Shown: positions 4,831 to 52,890 of the stretch, in pieces
Layout: the number at the start of each line of letters is the position of its first letter
Numbering within the stretch: position 1 is the first letter of the stretch
NCBI GenBank assembly: GCA_964016885.1
Contig: OZ024743.1
Coordinates: 241,738,001 to 241,802,000 of the forward strand
Length of the DNA stretch: 64,000 nt
Source: Eledone cirrhosa
Lineage: Eukaryota
Direction: 5' to 3'
Notes under the pieces: generated by a model
Seen by the model: the letters and a program-made list of their open reading frames with translations, nothing else
The model's database searches: none
Told to the model about the DNA's origin: nothing
Program-made: the position numbers and the translations under genes

Positions 4831-5371
4831 GGGCTGCTGGCCAGCTTAGATACAGGCAAGCCTTTTTACACCACACATTCTAGGCCCCTCCTAGCTAGCA
4901 TGTGATTAGTGATATCCCTAAAGATGTTTGATGCGTCACTTGGGATGATGCTAAGTCATATCATTGCCTATGTTTGGAGACAAAGCGACCGATATCCTAA
5001 GTCGGTACGAGTGAGCTTGCTACTACGTACTTCCAGCTCGTTAGGCCTGTAAATATCACAACTATCTCCATGGTCGCAGGTCTTTTTAAAATGAAACGTC
5101 TGTTAACCGACCAGGTTCTAAGAAGTTCCTGCGAGTGAATTTGATTATAGTGAGAGAAGCCAAGGCTCAACATAGGTTTGGATTCATTTTCAGATTTTCT
5201 ACCAGAGTTTCGTTAAGGCAAACGTTTGGATGGCCGTTGACTCCGCCCTTTGATGAGTATTGTTTTTCACAAAAAGCTAGCTTAGTGGATTGCTAGTTGA
5301 GTCGCCAACGACCCAACTATGCGACAGGTTGTACTGGTTTACGTGTCACCAGTAGCGGTTGAGAACGCATT

Positions 5372-5405
<34 letters not shown>

Positions 5406-5632
5406 ATAATAATAAATTTCAAGACTAAAATCCAAATAGGGCTCGATAAGGATAAGTATATATCAAATATATAAGAACCGTAGAGCAAATATTTATTAAA
5501 ATAACAGATTCAAGTTTAAGCAAAGAATCGCTGCTTTCACCCTTAACGGGATCTTCTGAAACTAACAAATCCAATCTGTAAACGCAGAAGTGGATATTTA
5601 AAAAAACGTTGCAACCGGAGGAAGACAGGAAG

Positions 5633-5687
<55 letters not shown>

Positions 5688-5689
<2 letters not shown>

Positions 5690-5832
5690 ATGAAAATAAA
5701 AGTTACGGGCGAAAGAGGGTAATATCCATCATCAGTTGTCTGCTAGGAATCATAGGTATTTCTTCGCGGATTCCTAGCAGACAACTGATGAAGGATATTA
5801 CCCTCTTTCGCCCGTAACTTTTATTTTCATTA
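5688..5832. repeat. Near-perfect fold-back inverted repeat (about 64-bp arms)
   Basis: taatgaaaataaaagttacgggcg...gctaggaatc / gattcctagc...cgcccgtaacttttattttcatta, with one visible mismatch. Confidence 0.95.
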
Positions 5833-6315
5833 TACTTAAAAGCAACCACACAGCCCGCCATTTTATTCATGGCCAGTCTGTGGATATGCGAATCTGGCTG
5901 ATCAGTGGATCTGCTAATATGCAGATCTGACTGATCAGCCAGTCTGCTTATATGCAAATCAGGCCGATCAGTCACTGTGTATTTTTGAAAATAGCATATA
6001 TTTACACTAGCTCTGACAGTTTGGCAGGTGAACAGTGAGCTGTACTGGTGAAGGGTGATACCCAGAAACATTAGTATCCCCTAGAGGTCACTATTCTAGG
6101 TGGGAGCACCTAGAATTGTTCATATACTATGCACAAACGGTACAACGAAGAATCTCGTATATCTGGAAGATTTCTTTTACTGTTTTTTTGTATCACACAG
6201 ACACCACGGCCTCGCCTCATAGTGTAAGCAGATAAACATCCAATACAGTCATTTTCTCTTTTACCTGTCGTTTCTTATCATCTGTTTACCCGGGCGAAGC
6301 TGGGTACGTCAGCTA

Positions 6316-6316
<1 letters not shown>
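5831..6316 (+). mobile_element. Non-autonomous Helitron-like element with internal ~33-bp subrepeats
   Basis: 3' hairpin tacccgggcgaagctgggta followed by CTAG-T. 5' tatacttaaaagc. Tandem subrepeats at 5872-5975. Confidence 0.6.
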
Positions 6317-6375
<59 letters not shown>

Positions 6376-6529
6376 GTGTATAGTCTCTTCGTCACTGTAT
6401 CGCAATGAGTTCACTCTGATTAGGTTTTCACACGTTTAATTATTGAGGAAATTCCGAAATAATAGTTGATCCTTCTATGCATTTAGTACTCTGTCCATCC
6501 AAATTTATATTATATTATATATTATATAT

Positions 6530-6579
<50 letters not shown>

Positions 6580-6641
6580 CCGGTCCTAGCAGTGAACTTA
6601 TTTTATATATATATATACATGTATATATATATCTATATCTA

Positions 6642-6719
<78 letters not shown>

Positions 6720-6758
6720 TAACCGGTCCTAGCAGTGAACTTATATATATATATATAC

Positions 6759-6796
<38 letters not shown>

Positions 6797-6890
6797 ATAC
6801 TTTGGGAGGGTCATGTTGCCAATAAGAATATTATTATCGGATTCAACACACGTTTCAGATAAAGAATCTTGCTAAACAAATTAAGAAACG

Positions 6891-6927
<37 letters not shown>

Positions 6928-7158
6928 GAAACACACAGATACATGCGGACACACACATATATACATGAATGCATCCGCACCCAACTGTGAGTTAAGGGTG
7001 CCAACTTCACCGATGTTGCTCAATGAATGACTGGGACAGACTAATTCAGTTTGAACCAGACTGAACCAGTATCAGAGTTAAAAATACATTATGAAGAGAG
7101 AAGAAACATTTAGATATAATTAGTAATAAAATGTATCATACCTAAACTGTTCCTAAAT

Positions 7159-7246
7159 TCCTCGACTACGTAGTTTCGTGGCATAAACAAAAACAATATA
7201 TCAAAGATATAGAGTCCTTGCGAGGTCTGCCGACTTATCAAGAGGA
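7159..7246 (-). ncRNA. Type I hammerhead ribozyme motif (U3-A8 core variant), copy 1
   Basis: Reverse complement: tcctc-TTGATAA-gtcggca..tgccac-GAAA-ctacgtag-TC-gagga. Confidence 0.8.
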
Positions 7247-7749
7247 TACCTCATTTTACTAGTCTCAAGAACGCGTCTACACGACGTGAGAAAGAATCCC
7301 AAAAGGCGGAGGGGGAGACAGTCACGCGATATAACGGTCGAGAAACAGAGCTAAGCCTCTTATAACCACGAAGAAAATACCACGGAGGCGGAGGGGGTAT
7401 TCATATCGAGGCCGTAGAAGAGGTAGTGAAGAAGGCGAGAAGTATGAGTAATGGAAGCTTTCCAGTTGTCCCCACACTTCAAAGATTGCTCGACCAGAGG
7501 GAGTTATTAATATATTTAGAAACACACAGATACATGCGGACACACACATATATACATGAATGCATCCGCACCCAACTGTGAGTTAAGGGTGCCAACTTCA
7601 CCGATGTTGCTCAATGAATGACTGGGACAGACTAATTCAGTTTGAACCAGACTGAACCAGTATCAGAGTTAAAAATACATTATGAAGAGAGAAGAAACAT
7701 TTAGATATAATTAGTAATAAAATGTATCATACCTAAACTGTTCCTAAAT

Positions 7750-7837
7750 TCCTCGACTACGTAGTTTCGTGGCATAAACAAAAACAATATATCAAAGATA
7801 TAGAGTCCTTGCGAGGTCTGCCGACTTATCAAGAGGA
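7750..7837 (-). ncRNA. Type I hammerhead ribozyme motif (U3-A8 core variant), copy 2
   Basis: Identical to copy 1, 591 nt away. Confidence 0.8.
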
Positions 7838-8232
7838 TACCTCATTTTACTAGTCTCAAGAACGCGTCTACACGACGTGAGAAAGAATCCCAAAAGGCGG
7901 AGGGGGAGACAGTCACGCGATATAACGGTCGAGAAACAGAGCTAAGCCTCTTATAACCACGAAGAAAATACCACGGAGGCGGAGGGGGTATTCATATCGA
8001 GGCCGTAGAAGAGGTAGTGAAGAAGGCGAGAAGTATGAGTAATGGAAGCTTTCCAGTTGTCCCCACACTTCAAAGATTGCTCGACCAGAGGGAGTTATTA
8101 ATATATTTAGAAACACACAGATACATGCGGACACACACATATATACATATATACAGACTGTCTCCCCCTCCGCCTTTTGGGATTCTTTCTCACGTCGTGT
8201 AGACGCGTTCTTGAGACTAGTAAAATGAGGTA

Positions 8233-8320
8233 TCCTCTTGATAAGTCGGCAGACCTCGCAAGGACTCTATATCTTTGATATATTGTTTTTGTTTATGCCA
8301 CGAAACTACGTAGTCGAGGA
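8233..8320 (+). ncRNA. Type I hammerhead ribozyme motif (U3-A8 core variant), inverted copy 3
   Basis: Stem I tcctc 8233-8237 / gagga 8316-8320; core TTGATAA 8238-8244; GAAA 8302-8305; palindromic stem III ACTACGTAGT; GUC with predicted cleavage after 8315. Confidence 0.8.
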
Positions 8321-8389
8321 ATTTAGGAACAGTTTAGGTATGATACATTTTATTACTAATTATATCTAAATGTTTCTTCTCTCTTCATA

Positions 8390-8439
<50 letters not shown>

Positions 8440-8446
8440 TTACATA

Positions 8447-8523
8447 CGGAGTGTCCTACAAAAAACATACACGCTTTTATTAGAATGCTGTTGAAGTGTT
8501 TATACATTCTTTGGGACATGCTG
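8447..8523. mobile_element. Tc1/mariner-type mini-MITE (diverged)
   Basis: cggagtgtcctacaaaaaacatacac...gtgtttatacattctttgggacatgctg, similar to 1254-1329. Confidence 0.5.
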
Positions 8524-8530
8524 TGTATGT

Positions 8531-8566
<36 letters not shown>

Positions 8567-10469
8567 ATATATATATATTTATACACATATACATATCCAA
8601 CTCTCCTCAGCAATTCACACTAGAGCTCTCTTTTCTTAAGTATGTAACAACATTTTCATCTCTGCTACAACACTCCGATTGATAATTTTGCTATCTAGAA
8701 GTGTTGCAAGAGTCTAACGTTTCACTCCATATTGTTCGATGCAATATATATTTAAAAACTAAAGTGGTTTACAAACAATCCTCCCAATGTGGAAATATAT
8801 AAATCAGGTCAACATTTCAAAGAAGAATCTGCAGTATTTATCATATTTATTAAATATCTTTTAAAGGAAATCGTAACACTTAGATCTGACATATTACTAT
8901 AATCGAATACCATCCTTCCAGCATCATACAAAACCTTATGTAGATCTGTAATTATACATAAAAGAACACCTGATCAGAACACCTGGAACTGTGTTATTTT
9001 TGTCAAATGTCATAATTGTCGAGTAGTAACTCAATACGTCAACAATGAATTTTGTCATTCATCCTTATTCATCCTTGTTTGTAAGCTGGTATAAATTGAT
9101 TATTGATCAATAGGTTAGGTAAAACTGCCTTAAAGTAAAACAAGTTGGCTATTTCTAAATCCTTTTTTTTAATTAATAGCCATAACCGTATTTTCAATAT
9201 ATGAGATATTTTGTTCATGGTGGAAGTTCTGGTGAAAAGCGCGACATTTTTTATTATACTTTAAAAGGACAACTGAAAATATAACTCAAGACTCATCTGT
9301 CTCAACATGCGGTGACTATAAACAAAATAGACTAGAGATTGACACTGAATATGCAAGTTTCGAGCTGAAGAATAACATGTAAGTGTCCTTTTGTAATGGA
9401 AATATAGGCGTTAAAATGTATTGAATTCCAAAGAAAGAGGCTAACATTTATCGTAGTAATTAAACATAGTAGCTTTTTTATTTGTTTAACATTGCTGGGT
9501 GGTATACAACGTGTTGTTACAAACTTTGGAGTTCGAAGCTGAACTGGGTTCAAACAGGTGTTTGTTGAGGAAGAGATTTGCTATTGTTCAATGTCTCTTA
9601 AGTCTCTTAATAACAGGAATACATTTTGTTGTTAATTGTTCTATCCATAACTTGTTACAAAGCAAATACAGCATACGTCCCTCGAAAGACTAATCTTATA
9701 AACTGAAATAAGTAATTATCACCTTGAAAGCTGTATCTCTTGTGGACATTGTGAAGGGGAATCTGATGTTACGCCGCTTTCAGATCCAGGTTGCTGCAGA
9801 ATACAATATATTGGGAGAAAAGGAATGCAAGAGCTATTCAATATAAGTCGATAGGATCTGAAAATCAATAGTAATTTATTATTAAATGCTCGTCGATATC
9901 AAAGCGTTGTTTTATTACTGGTTCTTTATAAGACCAACTATGTTGACCCAAGACAGACTGGGGGCACAATAATACCAAAGTTGTTTAGTCTGTCTTTTTC
10001 TAATGAACAATTCATGAAATTGAGAAAAATACGAAAATCAGTAACAATTTGTTCCAAAGCTTTGTATACATGGAACAAAATACGAGAAAGGAATCATCAA
10101 CATAGGAACCAGTCGAGCAAATTTACAATATTATTTTTACTGGTTCTCACAGTTTGAATATAACAAAGATCTGTCAAGTAAGAAAATCATATCACAGAAT
10201 TATAATGGAACACACGTTAGGAAAACATTGTAATACATATTTTAAAAGATAAAATAAAAACACTTTAGATGCTTGAAATAGAGAAAGATGAACAAAACTG
10301 TAGTCTATTTAGATTGAGGTGCCAGGCCAAGTTGAAGGCATTGTTGCAATGTTTGAAGTGATAAATTCTTGTAAGCATACTCGTATATGTAATATGTGGC
10401 ATTACATATATGTATGCATATGTATATGTGTATGCTTGCATTTGTACAATTACATACACACATATTTAT

Positions 10470-10574
<105 letters not shown>

Positions 10575-11272
10575 ATACATACATTAGACATAATAAAACG
10601 CTGGAAATTAAAAAAATATTGATCGAAACCTTGGAAAGATCTGTGGTTTCTTTTTTGTACATCTACTAATTTTTATTTTATATTATTTTTATTTTTTCTC
10701 ATACCTATCTGGATATCTAATCGAATGTGTTATTGTGCGAGTTAACATATAGGACATATTAAGATATGCTGAGACGATAAAAGTGCCTACTTGATGCCTC
10801 TTATAAAGGCTATTTAGATGTGTTTACCGTTTGAAGATACATTGACGTGTTCATAGCGATCAGGTCATATATGTAAGCTGAAATACTTTGATATGAAACA
10901 TAATGAGAAGAGTGACGTATGTGAGTATCTATTACGTATGTATATAAATATATATGGATATGGGCTTGTGAGAGTGTGTCTGTGTGGGTGTATGTTTGTG
11001 AATGTTGTGTGTGTGTGTTTTTGGCGTATGCTCCCGTTTACACACACACACACACACACATACAACATATATATATAGAGGAGAATACGTGTGCGTATGT
11101 GTGTGTCTGTGTGTGTCTGTGTGTCTGTGTGTCTGTGTGTGTACAATGTGTATGTGTGTATCTATATTGAAGTATTTTAATAGAAAGATATATCTCGCTG
11201 CTAAATTATTATAATAACACTTTAAACGCGCATTTAAATCTCCATTCGAAAATGTGAAGTTACGCATGCGTG

Positions 11273-42978: not shown

Positions 42979-43374
42979 CTGAATAACCAGTGCCTAGCAC
43001 GCAATATTGTCTACCGATGTACAATAAATTCCGGAACCAACAAATGGTATTACGTCGGATGTACCGCAACTTCTTTCAAGGCTCGCCTATACCAACATCG
43101 ATCTTCAATCAGGCACGAGAAAATGCGCTCCGTAACAACCCTCGCCGATAAAGCCTGGCAGCTCCGGAGGAACAATCAAGCATTCTCCCTTGATTGGCAA
43201 ATTATTGCAGCTGCGCCTGCATATAAGCAAAATCATCGATTCTGCAAGTTATGCAATTTGGAGATATACTGCATTTTAACGTCGGTAAACAAACTTTTGA
43301 ACAGCAAAATTGAACGTTCTCTATACTGTAACCACCGTTTGAAAACGACTTTTTCTTTTTTTAAATGCATATAA
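42979..43374 (+). pseudogene. PLE GIY-YIG endonuclease domain (probably Naiad-like)
   Basis: In-frame extension of ORF 43123: LNNQCLARNIVYRCTINSGTNKWYYVGCTATSFKARLYQHRSS...W.L...CKLCNLE...LLNSKIE...CNH. Confidence 0.88.
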
Positions 43375-47819: not shown

Positions 47820-48119
47820 ACATATATATACACACTTATATATAAACGTACATATGTGTGTATGTGTGTGTATGCATCTGTGTGCATAAATTTAACTTGG
47901 TCTGCCTGTCTGTAATAGTATAATGTAGCGTCAGATGTATTCAATAGTTGTACCTTGACTATACTCATGTAAATGTCTATATGTATAAGTAAATCATTCC
48001 ATATGAATGTTTATATGTACATAAAGTTTCTAACTCATCTTATATATGATCAAATCTTATATTATGTATAGTTATCTGTAGGTCTATATATTTGTCTGAG
48101 CGTAACCTTTTTAAAACAG

Positions 48120-48316
<197 letters not shown>

Positions 48317-48477
48317 CTATCTCGACCCCAAAAATAAAAGTACCAAATATCACACCAAATGTAAACATCTGGTGGATATTAGCTGGTTTCATCAATTTTG
48401 ATGAAGATATAGTAATTTCGGTAGGAAAGTCCTCCAGGGGCATATTCAACGGTACAAGCGTAGAAGTTCTGGTCCAA

Positions 48478-48885
48478 ATGAGACCAGAACGGATAGCTCG
48501 AATACCACAACGTGTGCCTCTGGATGGAAATTCCTACATAAACATTTCTGTTGAGGGTAGGCAGCCTTCATGTTACCACTGTTTAAGCAGTGGTCACCTG
48601 AGAGCTTCCTGTCCTCAATTAACTGCATTAAAAAAAGCACTACTGCCGACACCTAACACAACACAATCACCACCACCACAACAACAACAACACACAAAAA
48701 TAACAAAAACAAACCAAACTGCAAACACAGTCCCACCCAACCCCTCCCCACCTAATACAACTCCAGAAACACCCACACACATAACAGCTCCCCAAAATGT
48801 ACCCCTCCCCAACAACACGGATGAGGCCTCATCTCGTCACCCAGTGACGATGAGGGGGGGTGGGGGGTGGCTTTCCCACCAGTAA
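48478..48885 (+). pseudogene. Tx1 ORF1 (gag-like) CCHC fragment
   Basis: CX2CX4HX4C motif followed by a low-complexity P/T/Q region. Confidence 0.8.
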
Positions 48886-49526
48886 AAAGAAAAAAGAAAA
48901 GACATAACACAAACAAAAAAACAAAAATGCAACAAACACACAAACACCAATACAAGCGACGCAAACAGCACAAACAAAAACACCGCCTCCTGAAAACAAA
49001 ACACCTACTACAAAACGTAAACACACACAAGAACCACAGAAAAGAAGCAACACAACAAAAATGTTACACCTACATAAATACTAACAATAAAACATTAACA
49101 GACACCATATATAAAAACCCCTCGGTGGAGACCGAAGGGAAAACTTTTACACACTCTGCGGAGAATCCTAATCTTAAAAGGATTAGGATCTCCATGGACA
49201 CACATAAACAGTTAAAATAAAAATTTCCAAACGACGTAGGTAACCCCTGCGTCAAACCCTATAACCGCGTCCTTTTGAAATATTTCCCCAAACCCACCCA
49301 GACACTCCCACCCCATCCACCCCACCCCCACCAAACATCTCCGTCCCCACCCCGCCAGAGACCACTACCCCACCCCCACCAAACATCTCCGTCCCCACCC
49401 CGCCAGAGACCACCACCCCACCAAACAACCCCTCCAACTCCCCCATCGAAATTGTGCAGCCTGGTCCCCAGGAGACGAAATGGTGAGTGATTTCTTTTCC
49501 TCTTCTTTTAACTTTTCAGCACTAAC

Positions 49527-52500
49527 ATGGCCAATATAAGAGTTGGATGTGTGAATGTACGCGGCCTGGGGATGCCCTGGAAACAGGGCAAACTCTTAAA
49601 CGACCTCAGGTCGCACACTATGGATGTAGTAGCCATTTGCGAGTCCAGGATCCACAGCGAGCGACAACTGGCCACGATCTTCGACGACTTTGAGATCTAC
49701 GCATCTCTCTGTCAGCAAGATGATGGGGGTGGGGTTGCCGTTTTGCTGCGGAAGCACCTGGTCCTCGTAACACAGACGGTACATCTGGACCCGGAGGGTC
49801 GACTGGTGGTCCTAGACGTTGATGGTAGTGAAGGTGGAGCCTTCAGGCTGGTGGCCGCATATGCCCCGTCCGGGACACCGCGGCCAGACTTCTTCAAACG
49901 TCTAGAGACTTTAAAGGAACGTCCCGCTCCCTGGGACTGGAATGGAATCCTAGATGCACGTTGCGACTATGTGGGAGCTTGTCACGATAGAGGGGTGTAA
50001 CAGTCTGAAACAGTTAATCGGCCCATTTGACCTGGCCGATAGATATCGACTAGATTTTCCCAGTGTGCCACTGTGGACGTGGACTAATCCTAGCGGAACA
50101 TCTAGATCGTACCTAGATAGGGTTCTAGTTAGAAAGAAGGATAGGGACATGTTAAGCTGTCCACAAATGTTCATGGTTGCCTATTCAGATCACAAATTAG
50201 TGACCTGCTTAGTCAACCTTGACAGAACCCATAGACAGGGACCCGACTACTGGAAGCTGAACTTGTCGTTACCGGAATGCAAAGCCTACAGTAGACGGAT
50301 TAGCACTTTAGTTAAGCAGCACTTGACGGGGGCCATTGTCAACAACAGATGGTGGTACTCTCTCAAGTGGGCAGTTAGATTAGACTCGATAGGTTTTAGT
50401 AAAGAATTAGTGTTAGATAGAAATAAGACCGAAAAGGAACTGGTAGATAAAGTAGAAGAGGCACTTAGGAGTGGCAACGTAGCCAGCGTGCTAGCGACGA
50501 GAACGGCCTTGGACCAGTTCTTCGACGCAAAGCATGAAGGCTGCGTTGTCAGAAGCAAAATATGTGCTCTGGGAAACGAGGGAGCCAAAGCTCTTAGCTG
50601 GGACCACGTGACGGAGGCGAAAAGTGGCAACAAGTCCACGATTCGGTCTTTGGAGGACCAAGACGGACGCGTGATACGTGAGCCGAAGCAAATGTGCTCG
50701 GCCTTTCAGCGGCACTTTGCTCAACTTTTCGGACAGGGCTGCGCGCCGAGAGGGGCTATGGATTTCGGTCCATACCTCGACGGCCTACTGCGACTTTCGG
50801 ACAGCGAGGCGAAGTCCTGCGAAAGTCCGATTTCGGCCGCTGAGATAGGGGGCGCGCTGAGCCAATGCGGCAAACGCAAATCTCCAGGTCTCGACGGTCT
50901 ACCCTACGAATGTTACGGTCTCCTGGAAGCGGTCTACTGCAACTGGCAGCAGAACGGGAGAATTCCCAGTTCTGTGACCAAGGGCGTAATCACGTTAGTC
51001 AGGAAGGACGAGAATAAGGGGGATGACATAGGCAACTTCCGGCCCATATCTCTGCTCAACACAGAGTTACAGATTTTGGCCAAGGTGTTGGCAAAGAGGC
51101 TGGCACTTGTCGTCGAAAACCTGGTGGGAGAAGCGCAGACATGCGCAATCCCGACCAGGTCCATACACGACAACCTCCACCTCATACAATACATCATAGA
51201 GAGGGTAGGATGTAAACCCGGCTTCGGTGGGGCCCTGATCAACTTGGATCAGTCTAAGGCTTTCGATAGGGTTGACCATCGTTACCTGGATGCGGTGCTT
51301 GAGGCGGCAGGCTTCGGACCCGTGTTCAGGGGCTGGATTGCTGCAATGCACAGCAGCAACATCTGCTCAAGGTGTAGGTGAACGGCTACCTCTCGGCGCC
51401 GTTCCATATCACGCGATCCATCCGACAGGGATGTGTTCTCTCCTCCCTTCTGTACGTACTGACTCGCGAGCCACTACTGCGAAAGTTGGAACTAATGCAG
51501 GGCATCCCTTTGGTACCGGGACTGCGAAAAGGGGCGTCGGCCTACGCCGACGATGTGATATTAATGGTGTCGAGAACCTCGCACCTTTCTGGAGGAATAC
51601 GAAGGTTCACAGGAGCGAAGCTGCACCGGGACAAATCTGACGGTTTGCAACTCGGAACGTGGAGAGGCAAACTGATGACTTCCGATGGCGTCGTCGGACA
51701 CTAGACGGAAGGAGAGGTAAAGCTGCTCAGGGTCTGGTTTGGTCCGGACCTCCAGGTGGAGAAGAACTGGAACGAGGTGACGGCCAAGTTGTTTGCGCTC
51801 ACCCAGAAGTGGGCCGAGTGCAAACTATCTTTGAAAGGTCGAGCGAAGGTGGCGAACACTTTTATAGCGTCCGTCATCTACTACCGCTTGACCGTCGTGC
51901 CTTGTCCAGCCAAAACGCTCGCCAAAATGGAGCGCGCGCTCTTCCAATTCCTTTAGAAGAAACAGGCTCCTTTGGTGAGAAGATCAATCTGCTGCCAACA
52001 CCCTTCAAACGGAGGGCTGGGGATGCCATGACTGACGATGCGCAAACACGCGCTCAGGCTGCGGCACCTCCACGTATTCCTCACCACACAACCGGTGTGG
52101 GCCTCGTTCATGAGGCAAGCCTTCCCACAACTCGTCTCGCTGACCGAGCTACAGTCCTGGGTCAAGCAAAGACCGAGGTAAATGGGCGACTGGCTCATCG
52201 AATGTGCTCTGGCAAACGGACCAGGCGATCAGTGGAGACTCCACTTCGACATTCTATAGAGGGTTGGTCCGCAGCAAGTGCGACGACACGCTCGGAGAAA
52301 CTCTCGGTGTAGAGGAGGGCGAACTGCCAATCTGTTCGGTAGGACCTTCTGCCCGGGACCAATGGACAACTTCCAAAATTCCCTGGCCTTGGCAGTGCTA
52401 CCGAGGAGCTCTACCAGTTCGAGGCATGCTCTACAGACACGGGCGCCCGGGTAGGGACCCTTCGAAAAAGATCTGTCCGAGATGCGTGCGCGACGAGGAA

Positions 52501-52890
52501 AACGTCGCACACGCATTTGTACACTGCCAGGGCGTTACGGACCTGTGGGGCTATGTATAACGACTATTGTCGCGGGTGGGACCAATCCAGTTGACCACCG
52601 AGTCCATTGTCATGAACAAACCGCCACCCTCCTTCAAAAACGAGGGAGAGGCGGCTTTCCTATGTGTTATGGCTATGGTGAAAGAGGTTATATGGTGGAC
52701 GAGGTTAAAAGGACTGAGGTCAGACACCTTTCTCTCCGTCGAGCAACTGATTCGTTTTTTCAAATATCATTTTGGAAGAAGAATCAGGATGGAGAGAGAG
52801 GCGCTGTACCGCAGCAAATTTTATAAAAGGTGGGTGAATGTGGCAAAGATGGCCCGAGAGGTTGGGCCTTCTCTCTATATAAGCCTGTAG
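49527..52890 (+). pseudogene. Tx1 ORF2 (EN-RT-zinc finger), multiple frameshifts and stops
   Basis: Collinear pieces 49527-50000, 49954-51381, 51378-51704, 51756-51956, 52204-52560 and 52567-52890. Confidence 0.93.

Follow-up and report, generated by a model that had tools for sequence, protein, structure and literature searches.

Results

Structure of the insertion

The window (the whole stretch of 64,000 nt of Eledone cirrhosa DNA analysed here) harbours a non-coding insertion, flanked on both sides by (TA)n and consisting of two arms that meet head-to-head. The sequence has an exact period of 591 nt across 6919–8148, followed by an inverted arm (8156–8395) that is 100% identical to the unit. 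The GC content of the unit is 42% and its longest stop-free frames are 86 aa on the ribozyme strand and 71 aa on the other, in agreement with the earlier note, which had described a tandem of 591-nt units without any ORF. An 88-nt hammerhead motif is present in three identical copies, two on the minus and one on the plus strand; the positions, the strands and the 57 nt separating UUGAUAA from GAAA that had been reported for them were all confirmed, as was C17 at 8315 for the predicted cut base of the plus strand copy. Unit positions are counted from the base 3' of the predicted cut, so that position 1 is window 7754 on the minus strand. The features of the insertion are:

6893–6918, no strand: (TA)n target, left side
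6919–8148, minus strand: long arm of 1,230 nt (2.08 units), running from unit position 198 to 245, with its 5' end at 8148 and its 3' end (end B) at 6919
7159–7246, minus strand: hammerhead copy 1, type I, with a U3-A8 core, a long insert in stem II, a palindrome as stem III and a GUC triplet, C17 at 7164
7164–7754, minus strand: 591-nt monomer between two predicted cuts (position 591 is C17 at 7164), a predicted circular RNA with putative release and circularisation
7350–7398, minus strand: GC-box-like and TATA-like motifs, at about unit positions 357–405, identified by alignment and present in older subfamilies
7510–7674, minus strand: 165-nt "tail" from end A (7675) to end B (7510), with a predicted fold of hairpins, one of them just before end B
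7750–7837, minus strand: hammerhead copy 2, C17 at 7755
8149–8155, no strand: 7-nt filler at the head-to-head junction, repeating the neighbouring 8141–8147
8156–8395, plus strand: short inverted arm of 240 nt, from unit position 432 to 80, with its 3' end (end A) at 8395
8233–8320, plus strand: hammerhead copy 3, C17 at 8315
8396–8430, no strand: (TA)n target, right side

The motifs at about 357–405, which we take to be GC-box-like and TATA-like, may possibly function as an internal promoter. The left flank beside the (TA)n (6793–6893) is itself repetitive and was found in 31 fetched loci adjoining insertions of this kind; possibly this is a repeat of the host from which the (TA)n target derives. 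Elsewhere in the window a near-perfect 64-bp inverted repeat with a 17-nt spacer forms a MITE-like hairpin (5688–5832) that was unmatched among the fetched loci, and an open frame at 42979–43374 (plus strand) resembles a GIY-YIG domain, a PLE fragment by a motif recognised by eye.

The hammerhead motif

The core boxes UUGAUAA, GAAA and GUC make up a type I hammerhead core in which U3-A8 is present in place of C3-G8, and the motif has the complete type I layout with a 5-bp stem I, the pairs G10.1-C11.1 and A15.1-U16.1, a 57-nt stem II region and a palindromic 3-bp stem III. A search of Rfam with window 5000–11000 (E ≤ 10) gave low-complexity miRNA matches only and missed all three U3-A8 hammerheads of this stretch. 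Among genomic copies UUGAUAA is kept in 142 of 144 full motifs from non-redundant loci and in 24 of 27 rows of a set enriched for the older subfamily (four truncated rows dropped), both sets having been selected on the 3' core, and 90.8% of the stem cells are paired compared with 35–56% when slid, which supports all three stems.

The covariation score within the family is not above that of shuffles (0.098 vs 0.096) and the sole two-sided stem change affects one pair of stem I (U-A in 18, U-G in 6 and C-G in 4). The hammerhead fold lies 1.5 kcal/mol above the local MFE, which contains a competing hairpin. Two hairpins had been proposed within stem II. In the small inner one (cct-cgca-agg) two of the three pairs form in only 8/27 and 5/27 diverse rows, and it fails in older copies; in a long hairpin, 14 of the 15 pairs hold in 20–27 of these rows. 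These alignments make one long hairpin the most likely structure of stem II. Among PLE hammerheads, weak activity or assistance by protein is frequent (PMC11167929, PMC4209133).

The U3-A8 core had been regarded as a double compensatory change that argues for selection on catalysis. It is not novel, being a published natural hammerhead variant, with about 1,300 matches in Schistosoma PLEs (PMC4209133) and natural examples active in vitro (PMC3088659). U3-A8 hammerheads also number in the tens of thousands in the genome analysed here, where the core is common to several PLE-type families that retain it with differing stems, and it is therefore not a change special to the 591-nt element. No C3-G8 relative or ancestor of the 591-nt family appeared among the first 100 matches listed, so a double compensatory change cannot be assigned to this lineage.

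A young high-copy family

Exact matches to the 14-nt 3' core number 8,149 in the genome, compared with 7 for the reversed control, and a two-box pattern has 7,229 compared with none; with counts so far above the controls the motif is not due to chance. Searching the 3.0-Gb genome with the unit gave 399 first-look candidates, the 40 scored being mostly 99–100% identical. A set of 51 unselected loci, comprising all loci that contain the first 100 matches listed of the 14-nt core, ranges in identity from 100% down to about 77%. The 591-nt repeat is a young, dispersed, high-copy and non-coding family. Its dispersed loci carry different numbers of units, which argues against the tandem being an assembly duplication, and the previous suggestion of a non-coding, PLE-dependent hammerhead repeat is supported. 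At one locus (L044) a later duplication at the DNA level has doubled an entire two-armed insertion, the copies lying 2,554 nt from each other.

Public contigs of 621 and 620 nt (monomer + 30) were found in runs X1 and X3, and joints going back 591 nt in runs X7, X8 and X10; these fit a circle or a tandem equally. The unit is present in runs of many organisms, and horizontal transfer was considered as an explanation, but there were 0 reads in 1,938 Mb of raw Hi-C data of organism F, and the contig run of this organism contains GATC-joined pieces and a piece of family A (described below). Trace carry-over is therefore more likely, and transfer is not claimed.

Fixed ends and two-armed insertions

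The earlier note overlooked the most informative features of the family, namely two fixed internal ends and A>G scars. When analysing the arms, the 5' ends were found to be scattered and the 3' ends to lie at two fixed points, A and B, 80 and 245 nt after the predicted cut. At unselected loci (TA)4 is located within 20 nt downstream of 72 out of 75 A or B ends. These 51 loci consist of 27 simple two-armed, 21 one-armed and 3 complex insertions. In 24 of the 27 simple two-armed loci one arm ends at A and the other at B, the remaining three are of other types, and neither A+A nor B+B was seen; the one-armed loci end at A (11), at B (9) or elsewhere (1). The window copy obeys the same rule of one end per arm, with B at 6919 and A at 8395, as do 11 of the 13 two-armed loci among the best hits (the other two are cut by the locus edge). 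In an older subfamily of roughly 80% identity A+B was found in 9 of 11 cases, one of them approximate, the exceptions being L265 (A+A) and L267 (B+B); exceptions in other loci are L040, L058 and L061.

The arms reach up to 4.9 turns of the unit. Only 1 of 118 arm 5' ends falls within 5 nt of the predicted cut, which is crossed by 103 of the 118 arms (a figure inflated by selection on the motif) and twice or more by 42. At the GUC|GAGGA junction between units zero bases are added or lost in the listed motifs. The two arms overlap in unit positions at 38 of 41 loci, and for this reason classical twin priming from a single linear RNA was discarded as an explanation. A few junction bases are common to both arms at 33 of 41 loci, a raw count uncorrected for chance.

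As in non-LTR retrozymes, every non-coding unit of the tandem has a type I hammerhead, and the copies are dispersed and mobile in a genome that also contains an autonomous PLE; the family also has the tandem plus inverted 5'-truncated arm, the one-end tail and the microsatellite target of a non-autonomous PLE.

A>G scars and the template

Variants were analysed at 57 young loci, 48 of them with repeated coverage, and were called private when confined to one sampled locus (a genome-wide check was made for the L081 haplotype only). Fifteen private variants sit in all covering units of their locus and eight of these span both arms. On the ribozyme strand A>G outnumbers T>C among the private fixed variants by 9 to 1 (p = 0.0012), and by 14 to 4 if variants with as many as three carrier loci are included, while A>G accounts for 2 of the 72 variants present in only some units, some of the 72 being alignment noise. 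This bias, together with a circular-fold z of -5.8 for the ribozyme strand vs -1.7 for the other, agrees with the earlier assignment of the minus strand as the RNA strand. From ADAR chemistry, A>G in DNA copies is read as A-to-I RNA editing, and the scars are likely to be edits of the RNA template.

The two arms of L081 measure 4.9 and 2.7 units, and every covering unit in both has the same seven A>G changes together with two of other types. A 33-nt marker for this haplotype gave 7 genome matches, all within the L081 insertion, compared with 2,289 for the common form. The best explanation for the haplotype is a single edited RNA circle that was copied repeatedly from two start sites; a parent array could be absent from this assembly. 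At L028 A15.1>G is found in all four units; this variant has 18 matches at 11 places genome-wide (10 outside L028), and may therefore be recurrent or inherited.

Candidate partner enzymes

A genome search for GIY-YIG gave 10,597 candidates, 150 of which were scored; 30 loci returned from this search and 20 loci with long frames were examined, and a further 30 loci with canonical hammerheads were examined for homology to the unit. Bar one nested copy (L107), long homology of the unit to family A or to any of the 79 candidate PLE or hammerhead loci was not found.

Family A encodes, at L142, a 938-aa frame (P0001) with RT, a CX4CxxC linker (CGRSNCGTC) and GIY-YIG, the RVT_1 match (E 2e-6) being just under the cut-off and the GIY-YIG match over it. 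With an RT, a CX2-5CxxC linker and GIY-YIG at its C-terminus the protein is of Neptune/Nematis type, as judged by domains rather than by a tree. The family is located at L142:3150-9260 (minus strand) and in L162–L191, and the L142 ORF is apparently frameshifted near its 5' end. Its hammerhead, with 11,539 exact 30-mers, has U3-A8 and a palindromic stem III and ends in GUA. Numerous copies of the family consist of a short pair of pLTRs, head-to-head and within (TA)n.

The ends of family A lie about +80 and +145 after its cut, with (TA)n flanks, and the end motifs are alike in family A and the unit (a pyrimidine tract then ATA, and TTTCTAA then TA). Among 24 inverted pairs of family A, 22 are A+B (19 clean and 3 with altered junctions), one is B+other and one unresolved. 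At L033:4373-4451 and L057:4046-4158 family A insertions adjoin unit insertions in the same (TA)n tracts, indicating that targets are shared. When the unit was compared with family A for descent from a pLTR, only the short end motifs, the spacing of end A and the core variant were common to both. On these short common features family A (L142-type) is likely the best candidate for the mobiliser of the unit.

A second coding PLE family (L159:5050-5800, L083, L085, L089, L093, L101, L102, L106 and L158) has the UUGAUAA core, ACCGGU as stem III and one commonly used end, about 200 nt past the cut; in L093 and L158 both arms end at this site, and the A+B rule may not hold in this family. An 18-nt match of the unit to it lies upstream of the L159 ribozyme in pyrimidine-rich DNA and is probably due to chance. 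A further U3-A8 repeat family, with a spacing of 319 nt in L227, occurs in L192, L211, L213, L221, L226–L229 and at L142:500 and has two ends, one with TTCTAAT ahead of (TA)n. A 5.8-kb tandem "family B" was a false positive in which a LINE ORF had been read antisense; L222–L224 contain a young 5.8-kb two-ORF LINE (AP endonuclease and RT) in head-to-tail arrays, and related fragments are present at window 48115–52800.

Discussion

Proposed mechanism and alternatives

The fixed ends and the A>G marks suggest that a single RNA, probably a circle, is copied by a PLE-type enzyme from both sides of a break. We consider it probable that the window contains one insertion of a non-LTR retrozyme, a PLE-type element that encodes no protein. 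Self-cutting is predicted for its 591-nt RNA, which likely forms a circle and would be copied into (TA)n from both break sides by a PLE RT/endonuclease. Tandem copies would be transcribed on the ribozyme strand, the strand to which the A>G bias points. Cutting after GUC would be the work of the U3-A8 hammerhead, which probably acts as a dimer paired via the palindrome of stem III; the monomer would be ligated, and some molecules would undergo A-to-I editing, as suggested by the scars. A PLE protein, supplied in trans and with family A as the best candidate, would nick both (TA)n strands and prime cDNAs at unit positions 80 and 245, where the fixed ends are observed. Each RT would then pass the ligated junction for up to 4.9 turns before stopping at scattered points, and the two cDNAs would be joined head-to-head, giving the anatomy seen in the insertions. 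Mobilisation of a retrozyme circle by PLE RT has been proposed (PMC7229834). With a purified PLE protein, nicking and extension of both strands were observed, starting at two internal sites downstream of the hammerhead of that PLE (PMC11167929). Of the retrozyme dimers tested, 8/9 did not cleave (10.64898/2026.07.22.740005). A more detailed proposal, for which we see the chances as evenly balanced, is that an RT dimer grips one ribozyme-made circle at two sites 165 nt apart, primes on opposite (TA)n strands and rolls in both arms, and that germline A-to-I edits thereby enter the genome and drive the evolution of the family.

Alternatively, the element could be a non-autonomous PLE whose template is an uncut, linear transcript reading through an existing tandem array, the hammerhead being a vestige or a protein-binding fold and no circle being formed. 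Ribozyme cleavage is dispensable for PLE insertion, with ribozyme mutants still inserting and uncut RNA as the main substrate in vitro (PMC11167929), and the absence of run-off at the cut site, the weak covariation and the insertion of L028 with A15.1>G in all four units are compatible with such a template. An edited linear multimer should, however, vary from unit to unit, whereas L081 has the same seven A>G in both arms and is parentless in the assembly. Internal priming would moreover keep copies no longer than their parent, so that long arrays would need another source, and the core is kept in nearly all motifs of both sets (each selected on the 3' core). We regard this explanation as unlikely.

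Non-LTR RTs are capable of template jumping, and repeated jumps of the RT from the 5' end to the 3' end of a cut linear monomer would account for both the identical private variants and the tandem units with no need for ligation. The 5' ends are nevertheless not piled up at the cut and the GUC|GAGGA junction has no added or lost bases in the listed motifs, making such a template quite improbable; the absence of run-off at the cut is better accounted for by a circle than by a linear monomer. Growth of the arrays by DNA-level amplification or gene conversion after insertion of a single unit, a satellite-like process proposed in the Discussion of 10.64898/2026.07.22.740005 and in line with the whole-locus duplication at L044, is the least credible, as the arrays are short and dispersed, their variants are common to both arms despite different fixed ends and scattered 5' ends, and the fixed variants are strand-biased A>G.

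Comparison with known elements

The 591-nt element resembles the non-LTR retrozymes of Metazoa (Cervera and de la Pena 2020, PMC7229834; Li, Clavereau and Pollet 2026, 10.64898/2026.07.22.740005) in that its tandem units are non-coding and have one type I hammerhead each, its GC content is under 45% and PLEs coexist with it. At 591 nt the unit is longer than the 170–400 nt retrozymes of the former study and inside the 51–972 bp range of the latter, and it differs from the elements described in both by its U3-A8 core, by a stem II region of 57 nt, and by insertions that have two arms with two fixed ends and bear A>G scars. Expression and cleavage have been shown for those retrozymes and are predictions for the 591-nt unit. 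The LTRs with type III hammerhead, PBS/PPT and 4-bp TSD of plant LTR retrozymes do not match the unit, which is type I, arranged head-to-tail with no LTR pair, and ends in (TA)n.

With EN+ PLEs (PMC8557442, PMC3846280, PMC11167929) the family has in common partial tandems, an adjacent inverted 5'-truncated copy, a one-end tail, (TA)n targeting and two internal RT starts downstream of the hammerhead; of these, the tail, the truncated arm in inverted orientation and the targeting of (TA)n have been described as characteristic of PLEs (PMC8557442, PMC3846280). In contrast to these PLEs, the unit has no ORF, its tail is 165 nt instead of 30–40 and the whole element is the repeating unit. Its near-strict rule of one end per arm also differs from the in vitro results described in PMC11167929, in which both strands had the same start sites with no strand difference. 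Minimal hammerheads of the Schistosoma mansoni Cercyon PLE (PMC4209133) and natural U3-A8 hammerheads (PMC3088659) have the same core covariation and a palindromic helix III suiting dimers, but those described there are heterogeneous and mostly single, whereas the unit motif is nearly invariant and tandem, with a 3-bp stem III and a long stem II.

The element is a real and young non-LTR retrozyme or non-autonomous PLE, and its class, U3-A8 core and PLE-type anatomy were already known. No published account of the 591-nt family, of edited haplotypes across both arms or of a quantified one-end-per-arm rule was found in a search with most subscription papers and supplements outside its reach, where similar figures could exist. 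What the 591-nt family adds is a quantified priming of one end per arm, a candidate enzyme whose own insertions follow this rule, and A>G haplotypes that mark single molecules. In the accessible text of the cited papers the copying of retrozyme circles by PLEs is proposed rather than demonstrated, and the origin of the PLE tail and inverted arm is called undefined (PMC8557442, PMC7229834). A 591-nt substrate with two mapped starts, a candidate enzyme and single-molecule marks makes both circle copying and the origin of tail and arm directly testable. If the proposed mechanism is true, the reverse transcription of a circRNA by a rolling circle could be read from these genomic insertions, in a genome that also encodes a candidate enzyme.
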